Origin: a virus | Lineage: Duplodnaviria > Caudoviricetes | Virus record (IMG/VR): IMGVR_UViG_3300027985_000330 | Location: 1-56,306 of that record | Strand: one strand, 5' to 3' | Length of the DNA: 56,306 bases | Shown: one piece after another, positions 19,719-45,039 of the stretch | How the letters are laid out: the number at the start of each line of letters is the position of its first letter | Position numbering within the stretch: position 1 is the stretch's first letter | Position numbers and translations under genes: made by a program | Notes under the pieces: model-generated | What the model was told of the DNA's origin: nothing | Seen by the model: the letters and a program-made list of their open reading frames with translations, nothing else | Databases searched by the model: none

Positions 19719-20177
19719 TATCTTTATTTTTTGTATTTAATACTATTTAACGATTATTCGAAATGCGAATCTTTTGATCGCCATAAATTTTCTTTGCCTC
19801 AACGATGGCTTTTCTCTGAGATTCTGCTTTTACGCTCTGTCCGCATAGCCAAATTCCAGATTGATTGCTACGCATTACATTCAGTTCGTCTGGGGTTAAG
19901 CCTTCGGTTTTGTAGTAGTCGATTTCGTAGGTTTTCATAGTTTTCTTTCTTTTATGATTTTCAATAATTGTATAATCATTCAACAAAACAACTAAGTCAA
20001 CACTTTTTTTAAAAAAATACAAAAAAAGACCGTCCATTTCTGAACGGCCTACTCCTTTAAATTCAAACAAAATTCATTTTATACTTTTATAATCGTTCTT
20101 AACTCGTTTTTTACTCTCTTTCTATTTTAAGTTATTGTTTATGTTTATGTGTTTTTCAACGTTTTTGTTGAAAGTGT

Positions 20178-26493: not shown

Positions 26494-29400
26494 GGTTGTG
26501 TTGAGTTGGTTGTTTGTTCGATTTGCGTTGATGATGCTCGTTCGCTATCTGCTTTATCTTTTCTGAGCATAAAACATCCGATTCCAATGCACAAGCATAA
26601 AATAGCACCTGCAATGAAGGAAATTCCTGCGTCTCCGTTGGTTCCATCATTTTTCTTTATACCGTAGCACTCGACAATTGTGGCAAGTGACATGATAATG
26701 GATACAATGATAATGTAATTCATGATTTTGATTTTCCATCAAATAAGTTGTGCACCCATAATTTAAATCGCTCAAATGAGGTTGGTGGTTTGTGTGTACA
26801 TTCTGGATATGCAAGTCTTAATAGATCATTTGTGGGATCGGTAAATAAGCCATTGGATATAGCCACTTCTTCGTTTTTGATTATATCGATTGATCCATCT
26901 GGTCTTTGATAAAGTAATGTTCCAGGTTTTATGTCCGACAATGTTTTTCCATAAAATCGCATTTTTAGCGAATCAGCTTTTTCGCACCATTTGCGATATT
27001 CCTCATCGAGTTCAATTGCGTATTCGTGATAGTGGCTCATTATATGTATTCTTTCGGATTAAAGTCATTGAAGTCACAAATATATTCTTCGGTTCCATCA
27101 ATGTGAAAGTCGCCAAGATAAGCAGTATCACAATCAAGAATAGATACACATTGAAGCGAACCATTTGTGCGTTGCAATAATAGGTAATAATTATCACGAT
27201 ATTTCCAGATTTGTCCTGACTTTGGAATTCGTTTTTTTGGTTCGATGTAGAGCTCAAGATTGCTATCGTCTTGACTCCAACCATTAAAACTATCTTCTGG
27301 ATATTCAGCATAAAGCCATTTTCCACCCCACCAATAAATATAATTTATTGTATAAGGCTTTGGTGTTGCATGGCTTTTTGAAATGACCCTATCACCAACC
27401 TTAAATTTTTGTTGAGGACGTTTTTCAAAATCGGACTCCATCAATCCTGAAGTATGTAAAATTCCACTTACAACATTGTATGCAACACGATCGCAATTAT
27501 CAATACTTCTACTCGCGATAGTGGCAAAATTGCCGTGGTGATTACTCCACACCTCTTCACCGACCTCATATTTAGCAATCTTATTCAGAATTTCTTCTTT
27601 GGTTGCTTTTCTGAAAGCATATATACTCCAACCTGAACAATATCTAAGACTGCCAAGTGGTTCAAGCGTAGAAAATCTATCTCCAGAAATAGATGCGATC
27701 CTTCCTGTAAACTCCGAACGATATGTAGTCGAATCCAGCGTAACCCAATCTCCAACCTTGAAAACAGGTTCATTCTTGTTCAATTCTTCACGAATCGCTT
27801 TTACTTCGTCTTCAATCTTCTCTAACCGTGTGTTAATTGTATTCATATTTTACCAATTTCCGATATAATTTGTTTTATTCTTCAATGTGCTTATTTTCAG
27901 CTCTAATGCTTCAATTTGCGATTGATACGATCCAACGCTTTGATTTGCATTATGCAACGCTTTTGTCAGCCGGATATTCTCTTGTTCGAGATTGCGGGCA
28001 AATGATGATAAGACCACCTTGTGTCCTTCAAGTGTCACCTCTGCTTCGTCGGTCAGTGGTGTATTTGTGTTGCTCATTTGCGTGCCTCCCATTCGCTTAT
28101 TGCATCTCTAAGCTCTGCCATGATGATTTCCGATCCCTGTGATGGTTTGCTGAATTTTGATAGCTTTGCTTCAAGTCGCGCAAGTTGATCTTTTGCGATC
28201 TGATATTCAGATTCGTTTGTAATGCGTTTTTTTGCCATAGTTTTTTTAAATGTGTTCGATTGTGAATTCAACGTTTTCCGATTGCAGAAAAGCATCTATA
28301 AAGTCAACGGATTCCTCGACGTCAAGATGCTTGCAATAATCGATCATAGATGCATCAAATGCTTCGATGGATATGCAACCAATTGAGCTACTGATTGCAA
28401 AGCGGATTACGTTATGATCTTCGAAGTCATCCGAGAAAACGATGGGTGTTTTCAGCGTGTAAATTGAATTCAGGTGAATAGGTTTTTCTTTCATGATTAT
28501 GCATTTTTAAGAATGACACAAGCCCAATCGAATAAAGACAAATTCCAGTTTGATTGTGAAATCCAAGTTTCGCGTAAATCAATCATATACTCTGGATCTA
28601 ATGAGTAAAAGAATCCATCTACTGCTTTTAGCTTCTCAATTTCGTCGGATTCGTCAATGCCTAGAAATCTATCTTCCCATGCATATTTTACTGCATTGAT
28701 AAGCGATTTCGAAACTTCTGTTGAATTAATTGTTTTACATTTCATGATTCAAATAAAAAAGCATCAACTTGCTTGAGTCAATGCTTTTTTTAAAAAAGAT
28801 TTTTATTATTGTTTAATGCTTGAAATATAGTTAATTGCTTTTGTCAATGATCCCCATGTCGGCGATTCATTATAAAAGCTAAGACACTTGAGGATTATTT
28901 CTTGTGCCTTTTCTTGGCTTCCTGCAAGATTGAAAAGAGATCCATAAACTCTTACAATATGCCCTTGGATGTTTACTCCGAATTCTTCTCTGCTGATTGC
29001 GTCTGTTTTATTTTTCATGTTTATAATAGAACATGAATCAAAAACGATTTCAAGCACTTTTTTTAAAAAAAATAAAAAAAATTACAGCGGATATTTTTCC
29101 ATGCATTCGAGAACCGCGCTGCGAAAGGAATCTAAGTGATTCAAAACGCATTCCTTTGGTAGCGAAACTTGCGCGTAATTCTGATTCGGATCAGCTAGGT
29201 AATCGATAATTTTCTGATCGTCCAACAATGCAAGATATTCGTCTAGTTCGATTACAACTTTTTCGGTAAAATCCATGTCAGAATTCCCCCTTTACGATCA
29301 GCTTCGGCAGAAAATAAATCGCACAAGCCTGCAAAAAGGTAACATGCGGAATCCACGTTGAAAGCGGATCTAACGCATTAAGTAGCAGCATCACTGCAAG

Positions 29401-30996: not shown

Positions 30997-31261
30997 TATG
31001 ACAACATAAAGCGTTGCTGTGGCTTTGATCGATATAGCATAATCCCCATTACCCCGTCTTCGTCCACACCTTGAATCTGTATATATTCAATTGATGGATC
31101 ACGGTCAAGCTGACGCATTGCGTTTTTTAAGTATGTTGCATCTTCTGGAAATAAGTCTGAATTATATGACTTTGTAATGCGTTCCCATTCGCGCGTTTTG
31201 AATTCTTCATGTTCAATTGTATAGACCCTATTTTTATCGATATTCATATTATATATAATGA

Positions 31262-31666
31262 TTAAATATACTCAAAGCGTTGCTTTTGTTGTGCAACGAT
31301 ATTATCAGGAACGTTATGCGTATTCTGAAAATTTCCGTCCATTTCTTTTACGTAAACCGTATATCCATATTTATTAGCAAGCTTAATATATGGTTCATAT
31401 TCCCATTTTCGCGTAAATGTATTTGAAACGATGACACTATCTCAATCGTTTAACATCGCAGCTTCTGCTGTGTGTTGGCAGAGTTCATGGCAATGCTTAA
31501 GTTTTGCTGGTTCGAACTTATATTGTTTATTTTCATCGATCATGAACATATCAGATTCAACATGCAAAGCAAGCAATCCGCTTAATACAGATTCTTGCCA
31601 AAGCTTATTTGCAAATGTGGTTTTACCGCTTCCGCTCCATCCTCGAATAATCCAAAGTTCTTTCAT
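31262..31666 (-). pseudogene. P-loop (AAA_33 / PNK-like) kinase interrupted by one in-frame TGA at 31442-31444
   Basis: RGWSGSGKTT; same frame continues DSVIVSNTFTRKWEYEPY...HNVP...RFEYI to TAA at 31262. Confidence 0.8.
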
Positions 31667-31720
31667 TTTTCAAAACGAAAGCATATTTTTGATTGATTTG
31701 CAAGCATAAAATGAAGCAAG

Positions 31721-31803
31721 CAATAAAAAAGCCGTCGAAAGACGGCTAATCTAACACTGAGTTGGATTGCACCTCGTTACCTCGGGCAATCAACATTCTT
31801 GTT
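31721..31803 (+). repeat. ~82-bp direct repeat copy 1 (terminator + first attC-like site)
   Basis: Matches 42645-42726 except one substitution and one indel in the loop; identity ends at the GTT core. Confidence 0.95.
31725..31747 (-). terminator. Rho-independent terminator closing cassette array A
   Basis: GCCGTC-TTTC-GACGGC followed by T6. Confidence 0.8.
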
Positions 31804-32064
31804 CTGAGAAATAGTTATGGTTATACTTTCGCCCCTCTCTATTTGATTTTTTTCAACAAATGTTTCCAGTAGCTTTATAAATCCTGACAGTCCTCCAACA
31901 ATTGAAACCATTTCAGTGTCTTTGATTTTTCCCTTTGTTTCAGTGTCGTGACCAGCACCCCAAGATGTAAATCCGTATGTGCTGACAATGAATTTGCCAG
32001 AACAAGGCGTTTGAATTGAATTGCGAGAATCTCTCGCGTTTTGTTTGTCTGTTTCGTTGTTCAT
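31777..32064 (-). CDS. Cassette A1 hypothetical protein
   Basis: Likely start MNNETDK inside attC loop; C-terminus runs into the next attC arm. Confidence 0.6.
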   Translation of the reverse strand: MNNETDKQNARDSRNSIQTPCSGKFIVSTYGFTSWGAGHDTETKGKIKDTEMVSIVGGLSGFIKLLETFVEKNQIERGESITITISQNKNVDCPR

Positions 32065-32107
32065 ATCTTTATTAGTTCGTGTTCTCGCAATCATTCAACT
32101 TGTGGTT

Positions 32108-32356
32108 CTACAGATATTTGTTTGCGTCTTTCACGGCAGATCTATCCTGCTTGGTTGCAGACGGATAAACCATGTCAGCAAGTGGACACATCCGAAAATC
32201 TAGCACCATTTGAAATCTCCGAATGGTGAAATACCAGAGCCGACCACCCCAATACCGGTCAAATACAAACCACTTTTTCCAGCAGTTCTTATTCTTTTTG
32301 TGTTTTCGAAAGCTTACTTTTGGGAGCTTCCATCTATTTGCTTTTAACATATTCAT
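32108..32356 (-). CDS. Cassette A2 hypothetical basic protein
   Basis: Stop codon lies within core GTTCTAC. Confidence 0.6.
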   Translation of the reverse strand: MNMLKANRWKLPKVSFRKHKKNKNCWKKWFVFDRYWGGRLWYFTIRRFQMVLDFRMCPLADMVYPSATKQDRSAVKDANKYL

Positions 32357-32396
32357 AATAAAATTTTAGTAGAACAAATCAGTTCGTCGGAATTGC

Positions 32397-32771
32397 TTAC
32401 CGTTCCTGCTCGCAATCCACGACTTCGCGGTTCGGCAAATAAGGAAGCGGTATCCAGTGAGTTGGTTCATTCGCACCATCAAGCTTGTGCTGTGACACAG
32501 AATTTTTAACGTAACTCCACCATCCTTCTGCCTCTTGTTGTGAATCATAACCTTGATCCTTCCATAGCTCAACCTCAGTTCCATCTGTAGCGATTATAAC
32601 CCCAGTATCATAAAAGGCATTATGAACAATCCAAACAGATGCGAAATCGTATCCAACTATAATTTCAGTTCCATCTTTTGGTGCCGTCTCAATAGACATC
32701 CAAGCCGAACAAGGCGTTTTAAGAAACTCGCTACCGCTCGTTTCGTTTTGATTATGTATATCTTTTGTCAT
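32397..32771 (-). CDS. Cassette A3, DUF551-like phage protein
   Basis: WMSIETAPKDGTEII ... PTHWIPLP motifs; start in attC loop. Confidence 0.7.
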   Translation of the reverse strand: MTKDIHNQNETSGSEFLKTPCSAWMSIETAPKDGTEIIVGYDFASVWIVHNAFYDTGVIIATDGTEVELWKDQGYDSQQEAEGWWSYVKNSVSQHKLDGANEPTHWIPLPYLPNREVVDCEQER

Positions 32772-32792
32772 AGCTCGTTCTTAAACTTAGCG

Positions 32793-32987
32793 TTAGCTAG
32801 ATTCTTCATTGATTTCTTCTAATGTCATTTTGATTTTCGTTTCACCAATTCCGTGTTTATACCACAATAATGTAAACTCGTGTTTTGCCATATCGGTCAT
32901 ACCAGCGTTTAGAATCTTGGTGTATTCCGGCATAGCCCATTCTCCAGTCATTTCAATACATTCTTCAAATAATTCTCCAGCTTTCAT
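32793..32987 (-). CDS. Cassette A4 hypothetical protein
   Basis: AAAGGA RBS; TAA stop formed by the GTTA core. Confidence 0.6.
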   Translation of the reverse strand: MKAGELFEECIEMTGEWAMPEYTKILNAGMTDMAKHEFTLLWYKHGIGETKIKMTLEEINEESS

Positions 32988-33063
32988 AGCGTTTCCTTTC
33001 TAATTTGGAGCTAACAATACATTCTATGTAATCCTGAACCGCTCCGATCTCAGGATACATAAA

Positions 33064-33318
33064 TTAAGCGTTCGGAGAAATAAATTTCACCCACTCCCAA
33101 TGCCCAAACGTGCAAATAGAATCTCGATAACCGTATCCATGGCATCCAAGATTTCGACTTTCGTTGCTATGCTTGCGTGCCGTCGTTGCGCTTATTTTTG
33201 TCCAAAGCACTCCAAATTCATTTTGGAATCGGTCGCCTTCGATCAAATCTCCAAAGGTCACCGAACAAGGCGCTGTATCCAATTCGGACACGTCCGCGTT
33301 TTGGTTGTCGTTACTCAT
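33064..33318 (-). CDS. Cassette A5 hypothetical protein
   Basis: Likely start MSNDNQ in attC loop; TFGDLIEGDRF motif. Confidence 0.6.
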   Translation of the reverse strand: MSNDNQNADVSELDTAPCSVTFGDLIEGDRFQNEFGVLWTKISATTARKHSNESRNLGCHGYGYRDSICTFGHWEWVKFISPNA

Positions 33319-33357
33319 AATTTTTGTCCTCATGGATAAGCTTTGCGTTGGACACAT

Positions 33358-33618
33358 TTACTTAGATTGTGGAAACCCTGACGCCATTGCGTTGACTGCA
33401 ATAGCCCACATTAAAAGGATTATCCCAGTTGCTATTACTTCAATGTCGGTTTCAAAGTGATAGTTCCAGCCAACATACATGGTTGTTTCAAGCCAGTATG
33501 GAATTGTTGATACGATGGTAATAATTCCGGCATATATTTTTGTCCAACAAATCTGTGGAGAGGAACACTCTACCTGCTCCTCGGTTTTCGTAGTATCTGT
33601 TTTCATTTTAGCTTTCAT
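33358..33618 (-). CDS. Cassette A6 two-TM membrane protein
   Basis: Start in attC loop; two hydrophobic segments. Confidence 0.6.
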   Translation of the reverse strand: MKAKMKTDTTKTEEQVECSSPQICWTKIYAGIITIVSTIPYWLETTMYVGWNYHFETDIEVIATGIILLMWAIAVNAMASGFPQSK

Positions 33619-33641
33619 TTTTCGTGTCCCTCACATCGGCG

Positions 33642-34055
33642 TTATGCATTTAATGGTTGTTTCGTTTTTGCATCAATCCAACCTTGCTTTATTCCGAAAT
33701 CTTCATCGAAATCGTAAGTTTCAAATTTATGCGAATCACTTCTGTTTACACAATGGCAAAAGACCATTTCGCAACTTCTCTTTGTTAACGGTCCAATCTG
33801 ACGGTCAACTTTTCTGGTTTCTTTGTTTACGAGTTGTATATAATAGTTCATATCGAGGTTAGCCAATGAAGAATCCCGTTTTAGCCCCCGCCTGCCCATT
33901 TCGTCGCAATACACGACTAAACCAGCAAAGCACGATGCCTGCCAGTCCGAACCAGCCTCGGCTTCCAGCAGATCGGCGTGGGCCTGCTCTGCACGTTGCA
34001 TTAGTTCGGAATCCGCGAGGGATGCGGTATATTTTTTGATGTCTCCGTAAGTCAT
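33642..34055 (-). CDS. Fused ORF spanning two cassettes (junction at 33858)
   Basis: GC-rich 5' half joined in frame at core GTTAGCC to AT-rich half with own Met (MNYYIQ). Confidence 0.55.
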   Translation of the reverse strand: MTYGDIKKYTASLADSELMQRAEQAHADLLEAEAGSDWQASCFAGLVVYCDEMGRRGLKRDSSLANLDMNYYIQLVNKETRKVDRQIGPLTKRSCEMVFCHCVNRSDSHKFETYDFDEDFGIKQGWIDAKTKQPLNA

Positions 34056-34134
34056 AGTAAAAAAGAGAGGCTAACAAAGCGATCTAGCCAATTCAGACCC
34101 CGCTCGCTTTGTGGTTGTTCGTATGTTTTCTGAT

Positions 34135-34251
34135 TTAGTCTTCATGGCTAATCTTATGGTTCTCAGATAAAACAGGCAAGCGCAAAAGCGCAGCAACCTT
34201 TGCTTTGCTACCGCGTTTCTTCCGTTCGCGCTTGTAGTCGGGTGGGGTCAT
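34135..34251 (-). pseudogene. Short, apparently internally deleted HTH-like ORF
   Basis: MTPPDYKRERKKRGSKAKVAALLRLPVLSEN...; resembles first two helices of small Xre-type HTH proteins. Confidence 0.35.
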
Positions 34252-34454
34252 GCAATCCAAGATTTTACCTGTTCTTTGGTTGCAAAAGTCACATGGCCAT
34301 TGTCGGTTGTGACTTCAAATTTTCCTGCTACCGCATCGACGCGACGAGCGCGAAATCCGTTTTCCATCATTGGGCGAACTGGGGTGTTTTTTAGTGCTTT
34401 GTTGATTTTGTTTTGAAGTGTTTTCATATTTTTATGGTTTTCCGTTGGGCTCAT
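34248..34454 (-). CDS. Cassette hypothetical protein with own promoter
   Basis: ATGA-coupled to downstream HTH-like ORF. Confidence 0.55.
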   Translation of the reverse strand: MSPTENHKNMKTLQNKINKALKNTPVRPMMENGFRARRVDAVAGKFEVTTDNGHVTFATKEQVKSWIA

Positions 34455-34467
34455 TCCCTTCGATGTT

Positions 34468-34523
34468 TTTAATATCGCACAATCTGCGATTTATTGCAAG
34501 CATTATTTTCGCATTTTGTGCGA
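34468..34523 (-). promoter_or_regulatory. Cassette-internal promoter with two palindromic operators
   Basis: TTGCAA-17-GATATT; TCGCA-N5-TGCGA at 34475-34489 and 34509-34523. Confidence 0.55.
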
Positions 34524-34605
34524 TTTTTTTTAACCAAACAAAATGGAATGAGAACAAACTGCTGGAGTGAATGCCGAGAAAGCTCGTCATCCACTCAGCT
34601 CACGG

Positions 34606-34752
34606 TTATATAAATAAACAATCACATTCACGCCATGATTCACGTTTTTTATTGACGATAATCTCAACGTATTTCCCACCGTTTAGTTCGTATTTTTCAA
34701 CGAATGTTGCAACTAGTTTTAGTTTCTTGTGCATTACTTGTTTTGTTTTCAT
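34606..34752 (-). CDS. Hypothetical protein at head of array A
   Basis: Start MKTKQ just after promoter; TAA stop formed by last GTTA core. Confidence 0.5.
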   Translation of the reverse strand: MKTKQVMHKKLKLVATFVEKYELNGGKYVEIIVNKKRESWRECDCLFI

Positions 34753-34805
34753 GGTTGTATAGTAGCGCAAACGTATTACGCACGTCAATACTTTTTTTAA
34801 AAAAA
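34753..34805 (-). promoter_or_regulatory. Sigma70-like promoter with T7A7 UP-like tract driving array A
   Basis: TTGACG-18-TACTAT; related motif at 19997, 28778, 29050, 52133. Confidence 0.6.
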
Positions 34806-36239
34806 TTACAGCACGCCGTAAAATTTACCGTCATCGACTAAATGCGCGAACCCTTGAGAGAGTGCATCTACTTGGTCTTTGTATTTGCTTGCCGGAAAGT
34901 ATTGCAATTCATCAATCAAAGCACGATTCCACGCACCCCTAACCATTTTTACATTTCCGTTATTGACTTGAGATGCTAACGGTCCAGCCCGATCCGCTTT
35001 ATTACCTGTAGGCAAATCTATGATAACTTCCCAACCCATTAGCATTCTGGCCGTAGCTTCCGCAACCTCGAGTCCGCTCGATCCGCCTTGCCTTTCTATT
35101 ATAATCGGAATATTTTTACCATCTGCAGTTGCTGTCTGTTTTATGATTGGTTCACGTTCCGAAAAATCCCATTGGCCCCTAACCATGTCTAAAAACCAAA
35201 TAACGCCGCGAGTATCAATGCCAATCTCACATCCAGCAGTATAACATCCCCTATCCTTTAAACCGGCCGTATCCCAAGATCGAATGGATCTAACTAGATT
35301 ATATGGACGTTCATCTTCTATCTGTATCCGAGCTGTTTTAAACATGCCACCTTCTCGCGGAATCGGTGTTTGCATGTATTGGCATGCATATCCGAACGAA
35401 CCAAGAATAGCTTTTTTTTCATCTAAAACCGAACGCGACAACCGAACAGGATCGAGCAATCCATCTTTATAAAATCTTTTGTATTTTGCAGGCTTTACAT
35501 TATCGCTTAATTCGGCCGGAAAGCACAAATGTTTTATTTTTCCGCCTAGTTCTAATTTTGATCCGGTTGGATCGTCTTGCGCAATTCGCTGCATAATTAA
35601 TGCCTCAACAGAAACTGCAGAATCTACTTTTCTTGATGGCAAAACTTCATTTTGGAAAAGATTAGCTTTGTATTTTTCGGCATCAGAATCACCGTCTAAT
35701 ACTTTTAGCGGATCATCTGGAATAATAAAATGCGCATGACTTCCGGTTGGATTTCCACCTGTAGAAAATGTTAATCTTTCGCCCCCAAGCGTGTTTCCAA
35801 ATGTTTGAACTCCATCATTGTCACGCCTTATTTCAATTTCTGAAAAAAGCTTTTTATATTTATCACTCTTGATAATATCTCGACATTTCCTTGAAAGACG
35901 TTCAGCCAATCTCGATTCGCAACTTGTGCAAATAATAACCGCATGCGGCATTCTTGTCCATATCCATGCAGGAAAGGCAATCGAGCAAATACTGCTCTTT
36001 GATGTAGATGGTGGAACATTAATAATTAAATCATATAGCTTCTCCTTCCCATCAAATACGCGCTCTGCAACCTTTTGAAGCTCATTACATAATACCTCAT
36101 GATGGAAATTAATAACAAGCTTTTCATGGTTATTTACTTCCCAAAATTCTTTGAAGAAAATCAGAAAAGAACTCCTACACGCTTCAGCAAGAAATATGTC
36201 TTCGTTAATCTGCATTAATTCCGTAGTCTTTCGGATCAC
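34806..36239 (-). CDS. terL: Terminase large subunit
   Basis: IINVPPSTSKS Walker A variant, IIPDDP, IMQRI, SWDTA, DQVDALSQ. Confidence 0.93.
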   Translation of the reverse strand: MIRKTTELMQINEDIFLAEACRSSFLIFFKEFWEVNNHEKLVINFHHEVLCNELQKVAERVFDGKEKLYDLIINVPPSTSKSSICSIAFPAWIWTRMPHAVIICTSCESRLAERLSRKCRDIIKSDKYKKLFSEIEIRRDNDGVQTFGNTLGGERLTFSTGGNPTGSHAHFIIPDDPLKVLDGDSDAEKYKANLFQNEVLPSRKVDSAVSVEALIMQRIAQDDPTGSKLELGGKIKHLCFPAELSDNVKPAKYKRFYKDGLLDPVRLSRSVLDEKKAILGSFGYACQYMQTPIPREGGMFKTARIQIEDERPYNLVRSIRSWDTAGLKDRGCYTAGCEIGIDTRGVIWFLDMVRGQWDFSEREPIIKQTATADGKNIPIIIERQGGSSGLEVAEATARMLMGWEVIIDLPTGNKADRAGPLASQVNNGNVKMVRGAWNRALIDELQYFPASKYKDQVDALSQGFAHLVDDGKFYGVL

Positions 36240-36672
36240 AACCGCGTTGCTTAATCATATATATATTATACGCCATGAAATCTTGATCGTCTTTATCGTT
36301 TTCCCAATGCATAAAACCGAAGCAACGCAACGTCCAATACATAATTTCAGATTGTGTCATGTTATGTCCGTCCTCACGCAATATATCCAGAAAATACTGA
36401 TCACATTGCGCTTGTGTATATTGATGCGTGTGGTATCCCCAATCGTGAGCGAATGCAGCCCGAATGATACGCGGATCAAATGGAGAACCAACCAATGCCC
36501 AAGCGAATGAAGGGATGCTAGCACCATCAGATTCGAATCCATCCGGAATGAATACTTCACCGAATCGAGTATCAACCAACAAATCGCGCTTGAGTTTTAC
36601 ACATTCGCGAATTTTTGCATAATGCGGATATAAGCATGGTTCATAAAGTGGAATATATATGTCTGTATTCAT
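36205..36672 (-). CDS. DUF1353 family protein
   Basis: IPDGFESDGASIP ... AAFAHDWGY. Confidence 0.85.
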   Translation of the reverse strand: MNTDIYIPLYEPCLYPHYAKIRECVKLKRDLLVDTRFGEVFIPDGFESDGASIPSFAWALVGSPFDPRIIRAAFAHDWGYHTHQYTQAQCDQYFLDILREDGHNMTQSEIMYWTLRCFGFMHWENDKDDQDFMAYNIYMIKQRGCDPKDYGINAD

Positions 36673-36690
36673 ATATTCTAAATATATATG

Positions 36691-36855
36691 CTAAAATTCA
36701 GATAATGCAATTTCTCGCTTTTTGTGCTTATGCAATCGGTTGTTACGACACAAATCACACGATCTATGATTGCGGCATGTCCGATCAAATGATTTCGATC
36801 CTCTATAATGATGACGATGTTCTTTTCCGCTTATGATTGCCTTTAGTAAACTCAT
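36691..36855 (-). CDS. Small Cys/His-rich basic protein (below ORF-track cutoff)
   Basis: MSLLKAIISGKEHR...DRTCRNHRSCDLCRNNR; ATGA-coupled to minor head gene. Confidence 0.6.
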   Translation of the reverse strand: MSLLKAIISGKEHRHHYRGSKSFDRTCRNHRSCDLCRNNRLHKHKKREIALSEF

Positions 36856-37715
36856 GTTCTAAATCGTTTTCCTTCAATCACAGGTTTCCACGCGCAACGG
36901 CAACTGACGTGCTTAGGTATTTCTTCGTATGCATATTTCACTTCGAAAATCACACCCTCTAATGCAGCACATTGCGAACATACACGATCGTCTCCTGCTG
37001 TAGAAAATTCAACCATAGCCTCTACTTCATCTATGCCTAATCGTTCTAATGATGACAACTGCCCATATGCGTGCGAACGTATCGTCTCTGTTCGTGCTAT
37101 CGCAAATGCTCGCTTATTCGTCAATACGTCAATGCGCTCCAGCATTTGTTTAGCCGCTTCTGCTGGCCCTTGTCCATTCGCAATTGCGATTGCGAGTATT
37201 CGCCCCATCTCGTTAGACATTGCATCTGTAACGCCTTCCAGTGCATCATACGCTCGCGTATAGAGTAGCCCTAGCTTATCTACCGTCTCTTTTGATGAAA
37301 ATGCTTCAGACATCCATTGCGCTTTTTTTCCGGCAAAGAAATTATCATCATCGAGCAATCCCGCTTTATTTACATCGTAATAACTGCGTTCGTATCCTTT
37401 ACGATATGCGCTTTCTATATACGTATTCTGCCACGGATTTCCGGTGCTGTCGGTCGTTAAAATACCTGCGTCAATTTGTTCCTGAAGCCATTCTTTGAAC
37501 TTCGCAATTTTTTCGGTTGATGATAAAAATGCGAATTCACGATAACGGTTAAATATATTTGGACGCACTTCTTCTTTTAGCCCGAATGCATCATCTTTGC
37601 CTACGAGTTGATTTATCTGGCGTTTCATCCATGAAAAGCGTTGCTTCATGTCATTAAGATAACGCCGTCTAAGCGTGAGCGTTTTTGATGGATCTACTTG
37701 GTATGTGGTTGCCAT
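36852..37715 (-). CDS. Minor head morphogenesis protein (SPP1 gp7 / Mu gpF-like)
   Basis: IARTET, TAGDDRVC..C, PKHVSCRC. Confidence 0.9.
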   Translation of the reverse strand: MATTYQVDPSKTLTLRRRYLNDMKQRFSWMKRQINQLVGKDDAFGLKEEVRPNIFNRYREFAFLSSTEKIAKFKEWLQEQIDAGILTTDSTGNPWQNTYIESAYRKGYERSYYDVNKAGLLDDDNFFAGKKAQWMSEAFSSKETVDKLGLLYTRAYDALEGVTDAMSNEMGRILAIAIANGQGPAEAAKQMLERIDVLTNKRAFAIARTETIRSHAYGQLSSLERLGIDEVEAMVEFSTAGDDRVCSQCAALEGVIFEVKYAYEEIPKHVSCRCAWKPVIEGKRFRT

Positions 37716-37996
37716 GATTGAAATAAAACATAGCGCACTTGCTAATCATCCATTCACAAATGCGCCATGTAATCTACATAATATATATTGAAAAATTAAT
37801 CTTTTAGTTCATTTAACTGCGAAATTAGAAAATCAACCGAACCTCTACCTCTTGAAATAGAAACGCTTTTTGAATAAATCAGCGAATCTTCGCTTGCGTC
37901 TCCATCATATGCATTTTCAATGATAATGATTTGATTACCATCATCACTTAGTTTTACTTGAACTGTTTTTGTATCGTATGTTACTTTATTCATAGC

Positions 37997-39211
37997 TTAT
38001 TCCTTTTTCTTGTAATCTAAAAAATAATCTGTATGCGCAATCTCGTTTGTCCACTTCGGAACAATCTGAATTGAATATCCGCTATAGCTATCTCCAAAGT
38101 TATGCTGAACCCACGCGCTAGGCGGTGCGAAACTCATAAAGTTTCTATAATCAAACCGCTTCGTCCGCTCGTATCCAACTTGATGCAAATCACCTTTATG
38201 AACATGCACGAATTTTGAATCAATTCCATAATGTTCAATATAATCCCATATGAAATTCTTTGCCGCATCAGTAAGCTTAAACGGTAATCCACGATTCTGA
38301 AACTTGGCATCCTTTCCATGTGTCAATACAAAGCAATGATTTCCGTAAACGCGATGCTCTACAAAACGTTTAATTGTATCTATCTCAACAATAGATGAAT
38401 CATAAAGCATGTTTATAATCTTCTGAACGGCACTATTCACAATCAATGCAAATTGATGAGAATGATTTGCATTAGTAACCGTCCGAAGCATAATCTTATT
38501 TGCAATTCTCGCGTCAACGCACGAGCGCACAAGCTTTACCTTATTATCTACACAACACTCAAACATTTCAAGCTCTGTCATATTTTGTTCAAGCGAATGA
38601 TTTCCGCGAGTTGTAAGTCCATTCCATCCGTCTTGTGTATCGCCCAAATCATCCAGCAAAAGCAAATCAAATGTTCCATATTGTCGATGCTCTTTTTCGA
38701 TTGATCCGAATACCTTTTGCATGGATTCTCCGTAGACTTGTGCATTATATTCATACGCGAAAATTGAATCTATTGGCAACGGATCAAGCCCAACGTGCTC
38801 ATCGCTTGTTACCGCAACGCAAGCCATTGGATCACTAATCTTTATCGGCTCAAATAAGATAGGATCATCTACTGGATATTTTCGAATGATCTTTTCAAAT
38901 GCATCAAGGTAATCAATAGCGTTTGTTTTATCAAGCTTCGTATAGACGGACATCTCTTTTGATTTCGTCCAATAGCTTGATACCTCTGAAATGTTGATTC
39001 CTTTTTCTTTACAAAACGCCCTTAACACCTCATGATTAACTCCTTCAAGAACCTGATTGCTATTTTCAATTCGCTTTCCCTCTATAAATGCTTTCACCCA
39101 CATTCTACAGGTCATTTCGCTTATATTGAATCTTTCTGAAATTTGCCTTCTACCTAATCCGCTTTCCATTGCGGCGTAAATCTCATCAGGTATTTCTACG
39201 GTTACTTGCAT
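37997..39211 (-). CDS. Metallophosphoesterase/nuclease-like protein with N-terminal HTH
   Basis: SDEHVG, LGD, ANHS, THG, GDLH. Confidence 0.7.
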   Translation of the reverse strand: MQVTVEIPDEIYAAMESGLGRRQISERFNISEMTCRMWVKAFIEGKRIENSNQVLEGVNHEVLRAFCKEKGINISEVSSYWTKSKEMSVYTKLDKTNAIDYLDAFEKIIRKYPVDDPILFEPIKISDPMACVAVTSDEHVGLDPLPIDSIFAYEYNAQVYGESMQKVFGSIEKEHRQYGTFDLLLLDDLGDTQDGWNGLTTRGNHSLEQNMTELEMFECCVDNKVKLVRSCVDARIANKIMLRTVTNANHSHQFALIVNSAVQKIINMLYDSSIVEIDTIKRFVEHRVYGNHCFVLTHGKDAKFQNRGLPFKLTDAAKNFIWDYIEHYGIDSKFVHVHKGDLHQVGYERTKRFDYRNFMSFAPPSAWVQHNFGDSYSGYSIQIVPKWTNEIAHTDYFLDYKKKE

Positions 39212-39390
39212 CGTTTTTGCTGTTTGTGTTGACGTTGAAAACCATACTCGCGATTTTCATATTCTTCTACCAAATTCATCAGGTATTCCCGATATTGCGC
39301 ATCTTCACTTGTAGATTCGAACTCATCTAAGTCGTAAATGATCTCCAATGCAATAGCGCAATCGTGATCGTTTCTAATTCTAGTAATCAT
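39202..39390 (-). CDS. Small protein resembling the N-terminal domain of HigA-type antitoxins
   Basis: IRND.D...AL.II.DL ... YLMNLVEEYENREY; lacks HTH. Confidence 0.4.
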   Translation of the reverse strand: MITRIRNDHDCAIALEIIYDLDEFESTSEDAQYREYLMNLVEEYENREYGFQRQHKQQKRCK

Positions 39391-39474
39391 TTAATTTCAA
39401 AGTTTAACAAATGATATTCTTTTGTCAATAATATGAAACTAAAATGAATCTCAATGCAAGCTTTTTATTTTAAA

Positions 39475-40320
39475 TCAGCGATATTCCCTTGTATTTTTCA
39501 CAAGAATTATATCAAATCCAGCAAAAACATCAATATCATTTGTAGATGCTGTAGAAACATGAATCCATATGTCTGTTTTTTCAGGAATCCTAATCGGTAT
39601 CATTCCGCCAGATGGAACGGAAATGAATTCCGCAATCTTATCATTTGAAATGCCTCTTACCGTTAAGGTTCTAACGCCTTCATTTGGTGAATGGATTTTC
39701 AGCTCGGATACGATTGCTATATTTAAAACCCGACCCGAATCACAATAAGCTCTAGTCACAAATCCGGTATAGCCATTAGGTATTGTGTATATTGCCTGTA
39801 GTGTTTGTCCATATCCGGCTAAAATCTGAGCACAAACCGCACCACCGCCAGCGACTCTTATGTTTATATTGCCCTGATTTATATCGGTAGATCCACATTG
39901 CGTATTGTATGCCCTATATATTCGGATATATGTTTTAGACAATGCAACAGCATTCGTCCCGTCCATCTCAATATCTTCTTGCGACAAATCCCAATTTGAA
40001 TCCAATCCAAAGACCCTGATTTTTTGTGCTCCAGTTCCAACCAAATCATCTAATGCCGAGCTGGATACTACTTCCAAAGATTGAGCAGTATCGAAAAATC
40101 CAGTATAATTTCCGCCATTTGACCAAACATCCTCATTTCCAGAATTATCAATATCGAAATTTGCACCAAATTTCGAAACGTATTTTACATCATCTCCAAA
40201 GGCTCCTCCAGAAATAGCGATACCTAAATCTGAATTTATATCATATCCATTTTTGATATAGTTAGGATCTGCAAATAAATTCATAGAGAAAAATATGATC
40301 AATATACAGGAATTTTTCAT
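39475..40320 (-). CDS. Hypothetical beta-rich protein with signal-like N-terminus
   Basis: KFGAN.DID, GTGAQKIRVFGLD, AIYTIPNGYTG. Confidence 0.5.
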   Translation of the reverse strand: MKNSCILIIFFSMNLFADPNYIKNGYDINSDLGIAISGGAFGDDVKYVSKFGANFDIDNSGNEDVWSNGGNYTGFFDTAQSLEVVSSSALDDLVGTGAQKIRVFGLDSNWDLSQEDIEMDGTNAVALSKTYIRIYRAYNTQCGSTDINQGNINIRVAGGGAVCAQILAGYGQTLQAIYTIPNGYTGFVTRAYCDSGRVLNIAIVSELKIHSPNEGVRTLTVRGISNDKIAEFISVPSGGMIPIRIPEKTDIWIHVSTASTNDIDVFAGFDIILVKNTREYR

Positions 40321-40502
40321 AGCTTTAAGATTTCACGGTTATCCAAGATAGTTGACGATTAACAATGCGTTGAGCTGCGTCCCTCGCTTCTTTCTCGCGT
40401 TCCGGCATTGCACAATCAATCATCGTTCGCAAGTCATTATTGTTATCGGATATATCATCCATAGCTGATCCAATGTCAGCACCTATCCGAACGCGCAAAT
40501 CC

Positions 40503-42011
40503 TCATTGCGCTGATTGATCAACTGAACCAGTATCATTTCCGTCTTGTGTTAAAGCTTGTTCGTCTCCAGAATAAGCTTTTTGGTTTTTATCAGCATTTT
40601 CAATAATTTGCTGTATTAATTCGTCGTCGAATCCCCAAATTATAGAATAATAATCCTCACGCGTCATTATTGATTCAAGGTTGCTCTGTGTATACAGTGC
40701 AAGTGCTTTTGTTTTCTTTTCAGCACTTTCCGCCAGTTCTTCGGGTGTGAGTTTATTAAGATCTGGAAACTCAACAGAGAACTTCTCAACGCGCGGCAAT
40801 ACACCATAATCCATCAATCTATTGATTACCGGACGAATAATTTTTGGAATAATGTATTTCGTTTGACGGCGCATCAATCGCTTGTTCCATGCTTTTTTAT
40901 CTTCCGCACTCGCATATTTCGCTTCTTCGCTACCCAAGAAAATTCTCCACGGAACTTCTAACGCTATACATATTGCCTGTAATTGTATTGCAATGTGTGG
41001 AGTTGGATCGTTGATTGTTCCTGCTACCGTTTTAACGCTTCCGGTTCCGACCATGTATTTTTGCAATGATTCCGACAAACGTTCGAGTTGTTCCTTGATT
41101 GCTCCCTTCAGCGTTTCACTTGCGTTAATCTTTGCTGCCGCTTCCGGAGACATTTCGAAAATCAGCGATGGAAATGCATTCTTCCAATATCCTTCAGCCG
41201 ATGCACCATAGATTTTTCTCAGATTATACACATTGTTATAAACAGGCTTTAACTCTGGAGTTCCTTTTGTGTCGCTATCCAAGCAATTATCCGCTAAATG
41301 ATGGCAACGCGTCCAGTGAAACTTCATCGTCTTTGTTTCGAGTGGATTCGTTGTTGTAGCTTCAGATAAGTAATCTTTATATGTAACAGAATAAATGACA
41401 GGCTTTCCAAATCGTGGGCTATTCGTTCTTGTCTCCCATCGGTCAATCGTGATTGACGGTTCAGAATATGCACGGATATATAGCAATGAATGCGATAGAT
41501 TCTCGTTCCACTTCTCAGATGCTTCATCATATCCTTCAACCGGTAAAGAAGTATCTATATTGTTTGCATCATTCAATCCGAAAACGATTATTCCATAATG
41601 TCCAATCTTCGACAGAATATCAGCACGAAGCATCATTTCATAAAGCGAATGCTCATCATTGAGTATTTCTATGCCTCTTTCAAATTCTGTTTGCTGGCTT
41701 ACGTCTTCTGTTTCGTAAATCCATGGATCATCAGCCCAGCTTTCCTCCGGTAATAGCGATACAATTCGCGCTCCAATAGCCTCACGATCAAAAATTTCTT
41801 TATATTGTGATAGTGTTATTTGAGATGGATAATTACACTCGTTATTAATATCCTTTTTTCCATCAACTGAACCCGTAAAACGATCAAACAATGTTCGAAT
41901 CGCATTAGATACAGAATGATAATGATTCATCGCAAACATTTCAACATTCGAAATAGCATTCGATACATGCGCTAAAACCGTTTTTTCTTCTGCTTTATTA
42001 TCTCCCGACAT
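40503..42011 (-). CDS. Portal protein (DUF1073-like)
   Basis: SPRFGKPVIY, FHWTRCHH, GASAEGYWKNA, VPWRIFLGSE...ASAED. Confidence 0.88.
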   Translation of the reverse strand: MSGDNKAEEKTVLAHVSNAISNVEMFAMNHYHSVSNAIRTLFDRFTGSVDGKKDINNECNYPSQITLSQYKEIFDREAIGARIVSLLPEESWADDPWIYETEDVSQQTEFERGIEILNDEHSLYEMMLRADILSKIGHYGIIVFGLNDANNIDTSLPVEGYDEASEKWNENLSHSLLYIRAYSEPSITIDRWETRTNSPRFGKPVIYSVTYKDYLSEATTTNPLETKTMKFHWTRCHHLADNCLDSDTKGTPELKPVYNNVYNLRKIYGASAEGYWKNAFPSLIFEMSPEAAAKINASETLKGAIKEQLERLSESLQKYMVGTGSVKTVAGTINDPTPHIAIQLQAICIALEVPWRIFLGSEEAKYASAEDKKAWNKRLMRRQTKYIIPKIIRPVINRLMDYGVLPRVEKFSVEFPDLNKLTPEELAESAEKKTKALALYTQSNLESIMTREDYYSIIWGFDDELIQQIIENADKNQKAYSGDEQALTQDGNDTGSVDQSAQ

Positions 42012-42012
42012 G

Positions 42013-42339
42013 TTATTTTAAAGATTCCTGTTTAATTCGTTCGCGCTCAATGTCATTAATTTTACCATAAACCGAAGTCGCAATTTCATCTAGCGTTATA
42101 ACATTTTCATCGATTAAAATGTTTTTTGATAGGTCTTCGATTCCGTTTAAATATGCGAACATTGCATATTCAGAAAAGCTTTTTTGAATATCTTCGAGTC
42201 TGTCCTTATCAACAACAAGTCGATACGTTCCAATTTGAGTATCGCTATCCAAATAGAGCACACCTGAATAGACAGGTGCACTCTTGTAAGAACAGGATGA
42301 TAATAACAATAGACAGACTATGAAAAAAGCTTGTCGCAT
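42013..42339 (-). CDS. Small lipoprotein
   Basis: Lipobox LLSSC. Confidence 0.5.
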   Translation of the reverse strand: MRQAFFIVCLLLLSSCSYKSAPVYSGVLYLDSDTQIGTYRLVVDKDRLEDIQKSFSEYAMFAYLNGIEDLSKNILIDENVITLDEIATSVYGKINDIERERIKQESLK

Positions 42340-42644
42340 TACTCCTTGACTTTTGAAAACGCTTTCTGAATTTCTTCGAATGTTTCCTTCGCAGACGATT
42401 CGCCTTCTTTTAGTTTATTCAGCAATTCTGCGGTTGTTGGAGTTTCCATGTCGTCATCGTTTTTGATAACGTTGTAAATGGCTTTCCCAATTGAGAATAA
42501 ATCGGGAACGTATTTTAAAATCGCAAGTGCTTTGACGGCGATTTGATAAATGAGTGTTAATGACATAATAGCTATTTGTTCAAAAAATAGCATAGTCAAA
42601 AACGAATTAAAAGCAAATATGAACAAACGTTTACATATTTTAAT

Positions 42645-42726
42645 CAATAAAAAAGCCGTCGAAAGACGGCTAATCTAACACTGAGTTGGATTGCACCTCG
42701 TTACCCCGGCAATCAACATTCTTGTT
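42645..42726 (+). repeat. ~82-bp direct repeat copy 2 (terminator + first attC-like site)
   Basis: Matches 31721-31803. Confidence 0.95.
42649..42671 (-). terminator. Rho-independent terminator closing cassette array B
   Basis: Identical to 31725-31747. Confidence 0.8.
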
Positions 42727-44200
42727 GGCAAGAGTATTTTTCTTTAAGTCTGCGAAGTTGCTCGCGTTCATTCGCTTCAATTTGCTCCCGTTTTTTATGT
42801 TCAGACTCTAATCTAAACTGATATTCTTCATCTGTTTCAAGTCTATCATATTTTACCTCAATGGTTGCAGTCGCGCTATCATAGAACTCGTATGCATCAG
42901 TTCTGAAGATAGTATGCTCTATATGTTCCTCCGGAATGTATTCAACCAAGTCATTAATCCACTTTTGAAAGTCTAAAATGTTATTATTCCAATCGGAAAT
43001 ATCCAAATCAGACCAATCTTGATCGTTGTATATATATACTGTTTTAGTTCGTTTTTCCATTTTCGTAAGTTTATTTAATGATAACAAAGCAGTTCGATTA
43101 ACTCGCTACCGCTCGCAATCGACTTTTGGGTTAGCAAAGTAATTGCTCTATTGCTATAAGCATACCAGAAGCTTCGAGCATTTGCCCGCCAATGACAGCT
43201 TTAAATGTCTTTGAGTTTTCTGGTGATCGTTCATACTCCTTTTCTAGCGTATCAATTCTGCCATTGATATAGCTAACAAGTCGTTCGAGGTCGGAATTGC
43301 GAACACGCCGCAATTCCGAAGTATCATTATTTGTTGTCATATCTTTTCGGTTTTAAAGTTTTAGTTACTCGCAATCCCTCAACTTATGGTTATGCATATG
43401 ATATTGCTTCAATCAGTTCCTTATATTGTGGATTCTGTTTTATTGCGCGTTCTGCACCATCCCAATACAGATCATCCACAACCCTTTTTGGCATCATTGC
43501 CTTTGCGACTTCGATTTGTGATCTTAGTCTCGCTTTTGCCATTTTAATTTGGCGTATTTGTTCTTCAATTTCTGCATTCATGGCATAACAAGGCGTTTTA
43601 AAAAATTCCGCAATTCTCCATCTCTTTTAGTTCGATCATTCATCATGCGCTCCATTCTTAAACTTTTGGTTCGCTAAAATAAAATTTGCATACTCCAACG
43701 CCCTTGAGCTTCTGAATACTCCCCAAAACTCTGCCCAAGTTCCATCTCCACAATCTACGTTCCACGTTTCCACGCTTGTGTCGAATGTAACAAGCGGATG
43801 ATTTGTTTTTCGTATCCAACTATCTTCGACTTCGTAATCTAATAGAATTAATTGCGAACAAAACGGTGGAAGCAATTCGCTACCGTTCATCTTCTGATTT
43901 TCATTAGTTTGTGTTTTATCGCTCATGCTTCGCCTTTGGGTTTCCAAAATATCGATCAACGTCTATATTCCATTGAATCAACTCATCGATCTTTCGCCTA
44001 ACATCTGCTACAGTCTTGCACCCATCTGCCGTTCCAATACAAGCTACGATCATCATTTCATCCAGTGCCTTGTAGTATATGTTGCCCTCGGTGTCGGTTT
44101 CCGAGAATCCATCAGAACAATCCGCGTAAGAGGAACGCTCTATTGCACTAGTTTTGTTTTCGTTGCTCATGGGTTCGAGTCCCTCACATCTGCGTTAGAG
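42673..44200 (+). mobile_element. Cassette array B: cluster of 6 attC-like sites, no integrase (CALIN-like)
   Basis: Sites at 42673-42730, 43079-43136, 43271-43395, 43583-43675, 43853-43946, 44112-44200 separating five minus-strand ORFs (ending at 42713, 43131, 43390, 43636, 43916). Confidence 0.85.
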
Positions 44201-44209
44201 AATACATAG

Positions 44210-44659
44210 TTAATTTAATCGTTTCGCTTTATATGCTGCATAAGCTTCATGTATACGCTCCATTAGCTCTTTATCGCAAAACTCTGATAGATTCATTAAC
44301 GACGGTCCATTTGTTACATTTGCATCAATCTCGATTTGCTGTGTTGGCTTTCCGATCACATACTCAACAATTTCTTTTACTCTATTAAAGTCTCCTGAAT
44401 TTGCAGCATTTAAACATGCCCTTGCAACAATCGTGACAATTATTGGTTTTGATCGATCAGATGCATATTCCTCTATTGTTTCGATTTTCTCAAAAACAAG
44501 CTCCTTAAATGCATTTCTCAAATCTATTGCAGAATACCCAAGTTCTTTAATCTGTGTATATATCTTAGGTTTTCCTCCAGATCTATTTATATTTTCAGGA
44601 CGATCTTTGAAATTATTCTTCATCCAGTTTTTTTGTTTATGTATTGGAGTTGTTGGCAT
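44210..44659 (-). CDS. Terminase small subunit (probable)
   Basis: FKDRPENINRSGGKPK and IVEYVIGKPTQQIE motifs typical of DUF5681-like TerS. Confidence 0.65.
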   Translation of the reverse strand: MPTTPIHKQKNWMKNNFKDRPENINRSGGKPKIYTQIKELGYSAIDLRNAFKELVFEKIETIEEYASDRSKPIIVTIVARACLNAANSGDFNRVKEIVEYVIGKPTQQIEIDANVTNGPSLMNLSEFCDKELMERIHEAYAAYKAKRLN

Positions 44660-44667
44660 TTTAAAAA

Positions 44668-45039
44668 TTAAGTATTTATATTTTTATTACTATCATACCC
44701 ATATGATTGTAGATGTTTTTTTCCTTTAAAAAACTCAAGTATTTCTTTTATCCATTGATTGTGAAAATCATATAATTCTTTATCGTTGTCTATAATATAT
44801 TGCTCGATTCTCGAATTAAAAGAAAGATTTCCAGAACCTTCTATTGTATAATAATTCCCATCATATGTTTCGATTGAAATTATTTTAGCATGGGATGATG
44901 CAAAAATCAACTCAACTCTATTGTTATTCATAAATAAATCCCTAGTCAACGCTTCTTTTTTAGAACATGCTTTATTTCGAAGGTTTGAAATCAAGATTGT
45001 TGCATCTTCTATAAGCCCTTCGTTTATCATATGAAACAA
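44668..45039 (-). CDS. PLD-like domain fragment
   Basis: SHAKII ... EGSGNLSFNSRIEQY; appears N-terminally truncated. Confidence 0.5.
   Translation of the reverse strand: MFHMINEGLIEDATILISNLRNKACSKKEALTRDLFMNNNRVELIFASSHAKIISIETYDGNYYTIEGSGNLSFNSRIEQYIIDNDKELYDFHNQWIKEILEFFKGKKHLQSYGYDSNKNINT

Follow-up and report, generated by a model that had tools for sequence, protein, structure and literature searches.

Hairpin sites of the window and their attC anatomy

The window, that is, the whole stretch of 56,306 bases that was analysed, is an entire contig (C244) from a tailed phage of the virulent type, and the subject of this report is a set of intergenic hairpins in it that flank small open reading frames (ORFs) and resemble the attC sites of integron cassettes. 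Essentially all long ORFs of the window lie on the - strand, and the genes recognised among them encode a tail protein, a tape measure, head proteins, an RNA ligase, two DNA methylases, a helicase and a primase-helicase. The contig belongs to a binned genome of 2.74 Mb that consists of 265 contigs and is rated 76.6% complete. Fifteen hairpin sites of 58-125 nt were located, each starting on the + strand with NNNNAAC and ending with GTTNNNN. Nine of these lie within 2.9 kb (array 1, 31749-34611) and six within 1.5 kb (array 2, 42673-44200). A preliminary description of this DNA had treated 31801-44200 as one series of recombined cassettes; the cassette boundaries stood but the single array did not, as two arrays are present with about 8 kb of terminase-to-portal backbone between them.

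The 5' arms of the sites, and likewise the 3' arms, aligned without gaps, and AAC (AAC(A)) and GTT were invariant in 15/15 aligned sites. Read 5' to 3' on the + strand, a site opens with a 7-nt R'' that has AAC at its end and is followed by five unpaired bases. Stems of 3 bp and 6 bp come next, the first separated from the second by a single bulged base and the second followed by a bulged A, after which further pairing leads to a loop of variable length (a few nt to about 60 nt); the opposite arm is free of bulges and returns via five unpaired bases to GTT. The unpaired spacer is 5 nt in each arm of the aligned sites (5/6 in S1 and S11). With the first base of R'' taken as 1, positions 16 and 23 of the AAC arm are the bulged ones and enclose the 6-bp stem; the + strand A at 23 corresponds to a T on the - strand. 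For attC sites, the available part of Nivina et al. (2016, PMC5027507) gives as criteria extrahelical bases at 16 and 23/24 and a conserved bottom-strand T at 23/24, places the extrahelical bases on the AAC-bearing arm of the top strand, states that IntI1 needs a 6-bp stem between these bases and gives the spacer as 5-6 nt. The same source describes the AAC triplet as the only part conserved in all attC sites, base 16 as 'usually' G and no single extrahelical base as essential. The bulge geometry, together with the T at 23, therefore identifies the + strand of the window as the attC top strand and the - strand as the recombining bottom strand.

The inner helix was 79.9% paired in alignment A4, and 8/10 of its pairs changed on both sides. 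Neither the covariation score nor the percentage of pairing was reached in any of 500 shuffles, and sliding of the partners by 1-3 columns gave only 31-44% pairing. At least 8 of the 10 register pairs were kept in 12 of the 15 sites; S1 and S11 could be fitted once the 3' arm was moved by 1 nt, and S16 kept 5/10. Minimum free energy folding alone recovered the arm pairing in about half of the sites, and the numbers of wobble pairs, which were 4 for the + strand versus about 6 for the - strand, were not decisive for the choice of folding strand. RNAalifold run on a plain MAFFT alignment of the sites returned no pairs because the loops broke register, whereas a structure placed by hand on A4 worked. 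No family reached its gathering score in an Rfam scan of the window.

A covariance model (R1) built solely from the 15 window sites matched those sites and no others in the window. In a reverse test, with the phage-trained model set against known attC targets, three plasmid-borne class 1 integron loci, together 44.8 kb, were searched with R1 without filters. The best ten matches there (15.2-29.4 bits) were all attC sites, situated immediately downstream of annotated cassette genes and on the same strand as these genes, and the next match scored 10.9 bits. R1 also matched attC2 of a chromosomal integron in G280, a genome of the bin's bacterial class, on the array top strand at 19.7 bits. The integrase of G280 scored 421.9 bits against a cut-off of 265 and was 53% identical to IntI1. 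This integron (L015, which is G280:C40 1-4542) has one cassette with a DNA methylase-like gene and a second ORF, and its array continues past the contig end. On Polaribacter phage P12002L, the match of R1 was weak (17.5 bits, E 0.35). The intergenic hairpins of the window are attC sites, the top strand of which is the window + strand. At least two such sites close together, with no intI found nearby, make each array a cluster of attC sites lacking an integrase (CALIN).

Cassette boundaries and the head site H0

According to the preliminary description, the 7-mer that starts each cassette (R') is the reverse complement of the R'' that ends the same cassette. The seven pairs given there as perfect were found with 7/7 complementarity at 32105/32369, 32430/32704, 32792/33009, 33347/33542, 33858/34069, 34159/34549 and 43389/43583. 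Four further pairs matched at 6/7 as described, namely 31801 with CCAGAAC at 31997, 33070 with ACCGAAC at 33260, 43130 with AGCTAAC at 43271 and 43669 with TGCGAAC at 43853, and the two cassettes regarded as weak, which start at 42724 and 43940, matched at 5/7 and 4/7, respectively. The poorer pairing claimed for the two 7-mers of one site was also evident, at 16/60 variable positions and no perfect pair.

The permutation test suggested in the same description was performed on the 12 cassettes that are flanked by hairpins on both sides, with four variable positions counted for each 7-mer and the R'' partners shuffled 200,000 times; the 33858/34069 pair was excluded because no hairpin precedes 33858. 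Within-cassette complementarity of R' and R'' amounted to 39/48 variable positions, with six perfect pairs, and was beyond all shuffles, the sums of which had a mean of 19.1, a standard deviation of 3.6 and a maximum of 37; 0/200,000 equalled either the observed sum or the number of perfect pairs. Insertion at G/TT leads to this pattern, as it leaves the 7-mers that flank a cassette paired and the two 7-mers of one site unpaired. In the G280 integron, the corresponding junctions were 7/7 at 2/2 (attI side to attC1 and attC1 to attC2). The proposal that the boundaries result from circular cassettes that open at G/TT is backed by these statistics, by the G280 integron signature, by breakpoints that follow GTT (see below) and by the attC anatomy with cross-recognition by the model. 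That most cores deviate from GTTRRRY was also borne out, since 1 of 16 R' 7-mers in the window fits this consensus.

The 7-mer GTTAGCC at 33858 is unique in the 56-kb window, and G+C steps there from 0.35 to 0.52. The stretch 33648-33857, which has a G+C of 0.35 and begins with GTTATGC, abuts cassette c8 at 33858, and a single ORF of 137 aa (33642-34055) spans both. This stretch may have lost its hairpin or may have entered at a GTT that served as a secondary site; insertion driven by the integrase at places other than att sites is reported in a preprint (10.1101/2022.09.11.507474). Another observation concerns S1, the R' of which (GTTCTGA) pairs perfectly with the R'' of S16 (TCAGAAC) in the other array and at only 6/7 with that of its own neighbour. 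This match could be due to chance or could be a trace of exchange between the arrays.

Sites S1 and S11, which head arrays 1 and 2, are copies of one 59-nt site (H0) that are 97% identical and diverge right after GTT. Both are followed on the - strand by the same intrinsic terminator, and these were the two best terminator-like matches in the region. A third array, of three sites with both of its cassettes at 7/7, was found on C129, a bin contig of 9,928 bp that overlaps the left end of the window (1-570) with 94% identity across 570 bp. The first site of this array (T1) is H0 again; it is 98% identical to S1, the homology beginning within 1-2 bases of R'' and ending after GTT, and S1, S11 and T1 are mutually 94-98% identical. 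All three arrays start at the left with H0. In 2/3 copies, this site is at the 3' end of a phage operon, where an intrinsic terminator comes directly after it.

The second site of the C129 array (T2) repeats S10, and about 85 bp of promoter/operator-like sequence to the left of the site are shared as well, with unrelated cargo behind them. The cassettes that carry S10 and T2 both begin with GTTCTCA, the exact partner of the S10 R'', and the two loci diverge after GGTTA. This attC-plus-promoter module is therefore found in two placements, last in array 1 and in the position of the first cassette in the C129 array. Sites travel with the sequence on their left rather than with that on their right, which puts the point of exchange on the + strand at G/TT. 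As their final R', the three arrays have GTTATAT, GTTAGAG and GTTAGCA, which agreed at 6/7, 6/7 and 5/7 positions, respectively, with GTTAGAT, the partner expected from H0, as would be expected of successive insertions into an H0 that was once self-complementary; the inferred original head-site R', GTTAGAT, fits GTTRRRY.

Cassette c9 (34159-34611) and its counterpart on C129 (L027 1665-2399) share about 150 bp comprising the promoter-like region and the attC site. The small ORFs of the two are unrelated, one of those on C129 being helix-turn-helix-like, and the module looks like a self-regulated unit with swapped cargo. A search for the head-site pattern in metagenome contigs gave one match (L028), on an unrelated contig, which was rejected as chance, and a search in viral and genome contigs gave nothing.

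Two public runs contain the stretch, but these are probably the source sample filed twice and are not independent proof of the sequence; runs X3 and X4 contain next to none of it and parts of array 2 were covered by no contig, neither of which carries evidential weight. Logan contigs agreed with the assembly without differences, one spanning 32377-34566 and one of 8096 bp spanning 34579-42674, and broke at the repeated sites. Two contigs of run X2 carried S3-like and S5-like sites followed, exactly after GTT (32432 and 33072), by unlike sequence, and a contig of run X3, from the same sample as X2, carried an S2-like site (32001-32108) with different flanks. One contig in each of X1 and X2 joined 32108 to 33262, that is, the end of S2 to the start of S6, with 30 letters on the short side; this joint misfits simple excision at G/TT and may be a cargo-less junction or an artefact.

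Cargo, phage genome and related viral records

Cargo was antisense to the attC top strand in every cassette and co-directional with the phage genes, so that read-through from phage transcription can express it; in this respect the cassettes were not of the typical kind, in which the attC top strand carries the cargo ORF and the attC site is 3' of it. The strand matched by R1 on true integrons gives the orientation: cargo lies on the attC top strand there and on the opposite strand in every window cassette. The cargo ORF (69-124 aa) has its ATG in the loop in 7/9 long sites and exits the hairpin through L'' and R''; in the other two, the loop ORF stops at or just past R'' and the cargo has a separate start. 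The reading frame across the conserved arm bases is not the same in S13 as in S14, and conservation is therefore at the level of DNA rather than of peptide. The G+C of c8 was 0.52 as opposed to 0.39 for the phage, and that of 13/14 cassettes was phage-like.

Most cargo ORFs were without a match in a family search, and close relatives of two cargo proteins were not found in viral contigs. The cargo ORF 32397-32771 encodes a DUF551-like protein of 124 aa. Alignment with metagenomic homologues, one of which has a similar leader that ends in PACS, begins only at residue 24, and the first 23 residues, which the attC loop and arm encode, are an add-on. Positions of the sites, cargo ORFs and neighbouring phage genes are listed in Table 1.

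Table 1. Positions of attC sites, cargo ORFs and other features in the window. Bit scores of sites are from covariance model R1.
Feature	Position	Strand	Remarks
Intrinsic terminator, directly downstream (- strand sense) of S1	31730-31747	-	7-bp stem, 5 GC pairs, T tail
S1, array-head attC-like site (H0 type)	31749-31807	+	R'' ATCTAAC, R' GTTCTGA; 28.9 bits
S2, long attC	31997-32111	+	60.1 bits; loop ATG 32064 starts cargo ORF of cassette c1
S3, short attC	32369-32436	+	46.2 bits
S4, long attC	32704-32798	+	82.5 bits, 10/10 pairs; full canonical geometry; loop ATG 32771
S5, short attC	33009-33076	+	49.3 bits, 10/10 pairs
S6, long attC	33260-33353	+	75.5 bits, 10/10 pairs
S7, long attC	33542-33647	+	56.6 bits
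Boundary GTTAGCC, start of G+C-rich cassette c8	33858-33864	+	no hairpin to left
S9, long attC	34069-34165	+	73.2 bits, 10/10 pairs; 24-aa loop ORF stops within R''
Promoter/operator-like region of cassette c9	34463-34548	-	two 15-nt palindromes
S10, short attC, final site of array 1	34549-34611	+	48.5 bits; R' GTTATAT
Array 1 cargo ORFs	31777-34454	-	31777-32064, 32108-32356, 32397-32771, 32793-32987, 33064-33333, 33358-33618, 33642-34055, 34135-34251, 34248-34454
Phage backbone between arrays, outside all cassettes	34612-42653	-	large terminase, DUF1353, Mu F-like, exonuclease-like, portal
Large terminase	34806-36239	-	window gene
Portal	40503-42011	-	window gene
Intrinsic terminator, directly downstream (- strand sense) of S11	42654-42671	-	same element as at S1
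S11, array-head site (H0 type), array 2	42673-42730	+	27.0 bits
S12, short attC	43079-43136	+	55.2 bits
S13, long attC	43271-43395	+	51.1 bits; R'' placed at AGCTAAC 43271
S14, long attC	43583-43675	+	68.8 bits
S15, long attC	43853-43946	+	81.6 bits, 10/10 pairs
S16, degenerate long attC, final site of array 2	44112-44200	+	42.3 bits, 5/10 pairs; R' GTTAGAG
Array 2 cargo ORFs	42713-44170	-	42713-43060, 43131-43340, 43390-43581, 43636-43926, 43916-44170
Repeated promoter-like element	19995-20016, 28776-28797, 29013-29072, 34747-34806, 52096-52155	-	

Besides the third attC array, C129 carries tail-fibre-like genes and genes for a DNA polymerase III beta sliding clamp and a Rad52-type protein. 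This contig is either the same phage continued in a second strain or a close relative. Its overlap with the window indicates that the phage genome exceeds the window and is unclosed, and no contig of the bin was found to bridge the gap between the window (right end) and C129 (left end). The named phages nearest by terminase (about 37% identity) have Cellulophaga and Croceibacter as hosts, and one is named for Riemerella. A megablast search with 31000-45000 detected no DNA-level relatives in the phage collection, and IMG/VR relatives found via the portal were only 34-35% identical, with loci that gave no R1 match at E <= 1. An element that is repeated on the - strand ahead of several genes, and that consists of a T/A tract followed by a -35/-10-like pair, is probably a phage promoter family unrelated to the attC sites.

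When IMG/VR was scanned for exact patterns and the matches were checked with R1, the same site family was confirmed in five other viral records, namely L030 (two sites), L031, L032 (two sites), L033 and L045. The cassette between the sites of L030 was 7/7 (GTTCGGA/TCCGAAC), and its cargo starts in the attC loop on the opposite strand, as in the window. One cassette of L032 was 7/7 (GTTCGCT/AGCGAAC) and another 5/7; a long cassette between two family sites of this record (2531-3200) holds a large ORF that was noted by eye as a candidate DNA methylase. Family sites were not found in the rest of the bin, and of 7 matches to the S6-type pattern in the prokaryote genome collection, none was confirmed by R1. 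A partial tyrosine recombinase at the end of bin contig C20 was rejected as a phage gene because bacterial metabolic genes surround it.

Origin of the arrays and comparison with known systems

The explanation that we consider likely is that the phage carries integron-type cassette arrays without an integrase of its own, i.e., CALINs, the cassettes of which were inserted by site-specific recombination. Circular cassettes would have been inserted one after another at H0, with strand exchange at G/TT of R' on the + strand, so that each cassette would start with the TTNNNN half of its own R' and end with its own R'', the hairpin and G. The enzyme would be an IntI-type tyrosine recombinase that acts in trans, from the host or a co-resident element, on the folded - strand, and expression would be by read-through of the phage operon and, in addition, from the internal promoter in cassette c9. 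In their geometry, the sites are as IntI1 requires. The enzyme is the weakest link of the mechanism: IntI was found in only 1/401 sampled genomes of the class and not in the bin, and the phage genome is unclosed.

A number of results weigh against insertion by an integron integrase. Tyrosine recombinases (PF00589) gave no match in the window or C129, so that the intI that stands with attI and Pc beside the array of a complete integron was not found there; the three matches in the bin were on other contigs, and no integron integrase (TIGR02249) in the bin scored above the cut-off, in searches limited by a bin that is 76.6% complete and by the unclosed phage genome. Five viral records scanned for PF00589, four of them site-bearing (L045 was not among them), were also negative, and these include the 65-kb genome of L030, which has terminal repeats and is rated 100% complete. 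As noted above, IntI was seldom found among the sampled genomes of the class, and R1 gave no match at E <= 0.001 in 150 other genomes of this class, a result that, with strict filters and 25 candidates scored per genome, is not proof of absence. With regard to the sites, only 3 of 15 have G as base 16 on the - strand, the others being divided equally between A (6) and C (6), and among the R' 7-mers only GTTGGAC fits GTTRRRY. Complementarity is weaker in array 2 (5, 6, 7, 6 and 4 of 7), where S16 is degenerate, the cassette 33648-33857 is without an attC site of its own, and uniformly antisense cargo is atypical for integrons. Finally, no recombination event was directly observed, the evidence being from assembled contigs only.

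The negative integrase searches are an argument for an alternative that we think unlikely, namely that attC-shaped sites of a phage-only pool are recombined by a non-integron enzyme, either a phage enzyme that escaped recognition or a XerC/D-type recombinase of the host that uses folded single strands as substrate. This alternative would also fit the scarcity of IntI among the 401 class genomes, the occurrence of the site family in viral records but in 0/7 pattern matches from the bacterial collection and 0/150 class genomes, the phage-type nature of the DUF551-like cargo and the inverted orientation of cargo throughout. However, bulges at 16 and 23, a 6-bp stem, T at 23 and a 5-nt spacer make up exactly the geometry described as required by IntI1, the crossover is at G/TT as in integrons and R1 finds class 1 attC sites. 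Moreover, published phage attC sites are substrates of IntI1, and no candidate for an alternative enzyme was found. That the arrays are passive cargo, i.e., a piece of a chromosomal integron that was captured by the phage after the signature had formed in a bacterium, is highly improbable. Capture of this kind is reported for Vibrio phages with chromosomal integron fragments (available part of Qi et al., PMC9892861) and would agree with the lack of an integrase in the phage and with the foreign G+C of c8. It would not explain why three arrays occupy three positions in the backbone, each headed by H0 and two just before an operon terminator, why the 7-mers at array ends close on H0 or why one attC-plus-promoter module is first in one array and last in another. 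All cargo, furthermore, is co-directional with phage genes, 13/14 cassettes have phage-like G+C, and the sites were not found in the rest of the bin or in the 150 class genomes.

A further alternative, in which the hairpins are transcript-level elements (intercistronic stem-loops or presenters of translation starts) and the modules are shuffled by homologous recombination between hairpins that resemble each other, as has been proposed for promoter/stem-loop modules of T4-type phages, appears scarcely credible. The hairpins are indeed present in the sense transcript, the start codon is in the loop of 7/9 long sites, stem covariation cannot separate folding of DNA from that of RNA, and a Rad52-type annealing protein is encoded beside the third array. 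Homologous exchange, however, would neither yield complementary 7-mers at the two ends of a cassette nor put every breakpoint just after GTT, and it leaves the attC-specific bulges and the cross-recognition of class 1 sites unaccounted for. The hairpins could nevertheless have an additional role in RNA. We tentatively propose, as something that is possible but on balance somewhat doubtful, that the arrays are a phage-adapted 'reverse' integron, in which phage-type genes would be carried antisense to attC, the loop would serve as a portable translation start and cassettes would enter at a dedicated head hairpin just before the operon terminator and be expressed there by read-through transcription. 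The cassette pool would circulate among unrelated phages that lack an integrase and borrow, or possibly replace, the host recombinase to diversify accessory genes, e.g., those for counter-defence.

Integrons are regarded as bacterial devices, and phages have so far been shown to carry few attC sites, which have been read as a possible route of transfer. In this phage of virulent type, which has at least three arrays, the cassette boundaries, shared modules and population variants described here indicate insertion of cassettes into the phage genome itself. If this is true, phages build a repertoire of accessory genes by integron-style, structure-specific recombination, and the absence of an integrase raises the sharp question of which enzyme and which host are involved. 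Inverted cargo with start codons embedded in attC loops is an architecture that was not seen in the bacterial integron loci examined. The sites are also a natural set of attC variants off the GTTRRRY consensus that could be used to probe the requirements of integrases.

Compared with class 1 and G280 integrons, the arrays of the window are alike in attC anatomy, crossover at G/TT, recognition by R1 and complementarity of R' and R'' (2/2 junctions in G280). They differ in that intI, attI and Pc were not detected in the window and R' is seldom GTTRRRY, in that cargo is on the strand opposite to the attC top strand, which carries it in the four integron loci examined, and in that insertion was apparently at a hairpin head site at the 3' end of an operon. 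In T4-type phages, promoter/stem-loop modules have been proposed to shuffle by homologous recombination. Their likeness to the window is that small accessory genes in the plastic regions of a virulent phage are bordered by recurring intergenic stem-loops; in contrast with the T4-type modules, the boundaries in the window are fixed at G/TT and the stem-loops have attC geometry.

Cassette c9 and its C129 counterpart are similar to the promoter-bearing toxin-antitoxin cassettes of chromosomal integrons described in the available part of Richard et al. (2024, PMC13108822) in that a promoter-like region with palindromic operators is present in the cassette itself, along with two or three small ORFs that overlap and include one of helix-turn-helix-like type. 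Unlike those cassettes, they match no toxin or antitoxin family and have unrelated cargo behind the same promoter and attC site.

The closest likeness in kind is to the CALINs of phages. As far as the available part of Qi et al. (2023, PMC9892861) goes, 17 CALINs, each with at least two predicted attC sites, were present in 10,705 phage genomes, some of them virulent, and IntI1 recombined 5/6 attC sites tested from virulent phages. The neighbourhoods of these CALINs include terminators with inverted GTTRRRY motifs, methyltransferases are among the cassettes, and one of the phages infects Polaribacter, a flavobacterium. The site family of P12002L differs from that of the window, as judged by its weak match to R1. 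In the same part of that paper, the supplementary tables of which may list larger arrays, and in literature searches, no description was found of arrays of this size, a repeated head site, proof of the boundary signature within a phage, uniformly antisense cargo or start codons in attC loops. Clusters of attC sites without intI in virulent phages are thus already known, and the window phage is a variant of that kind, which differs from those described in that it has 15 sites in two arrays and three more on C129, all headed by H0, together with a clear G/TT signature, antisense cargo and start codons in the attC loop.

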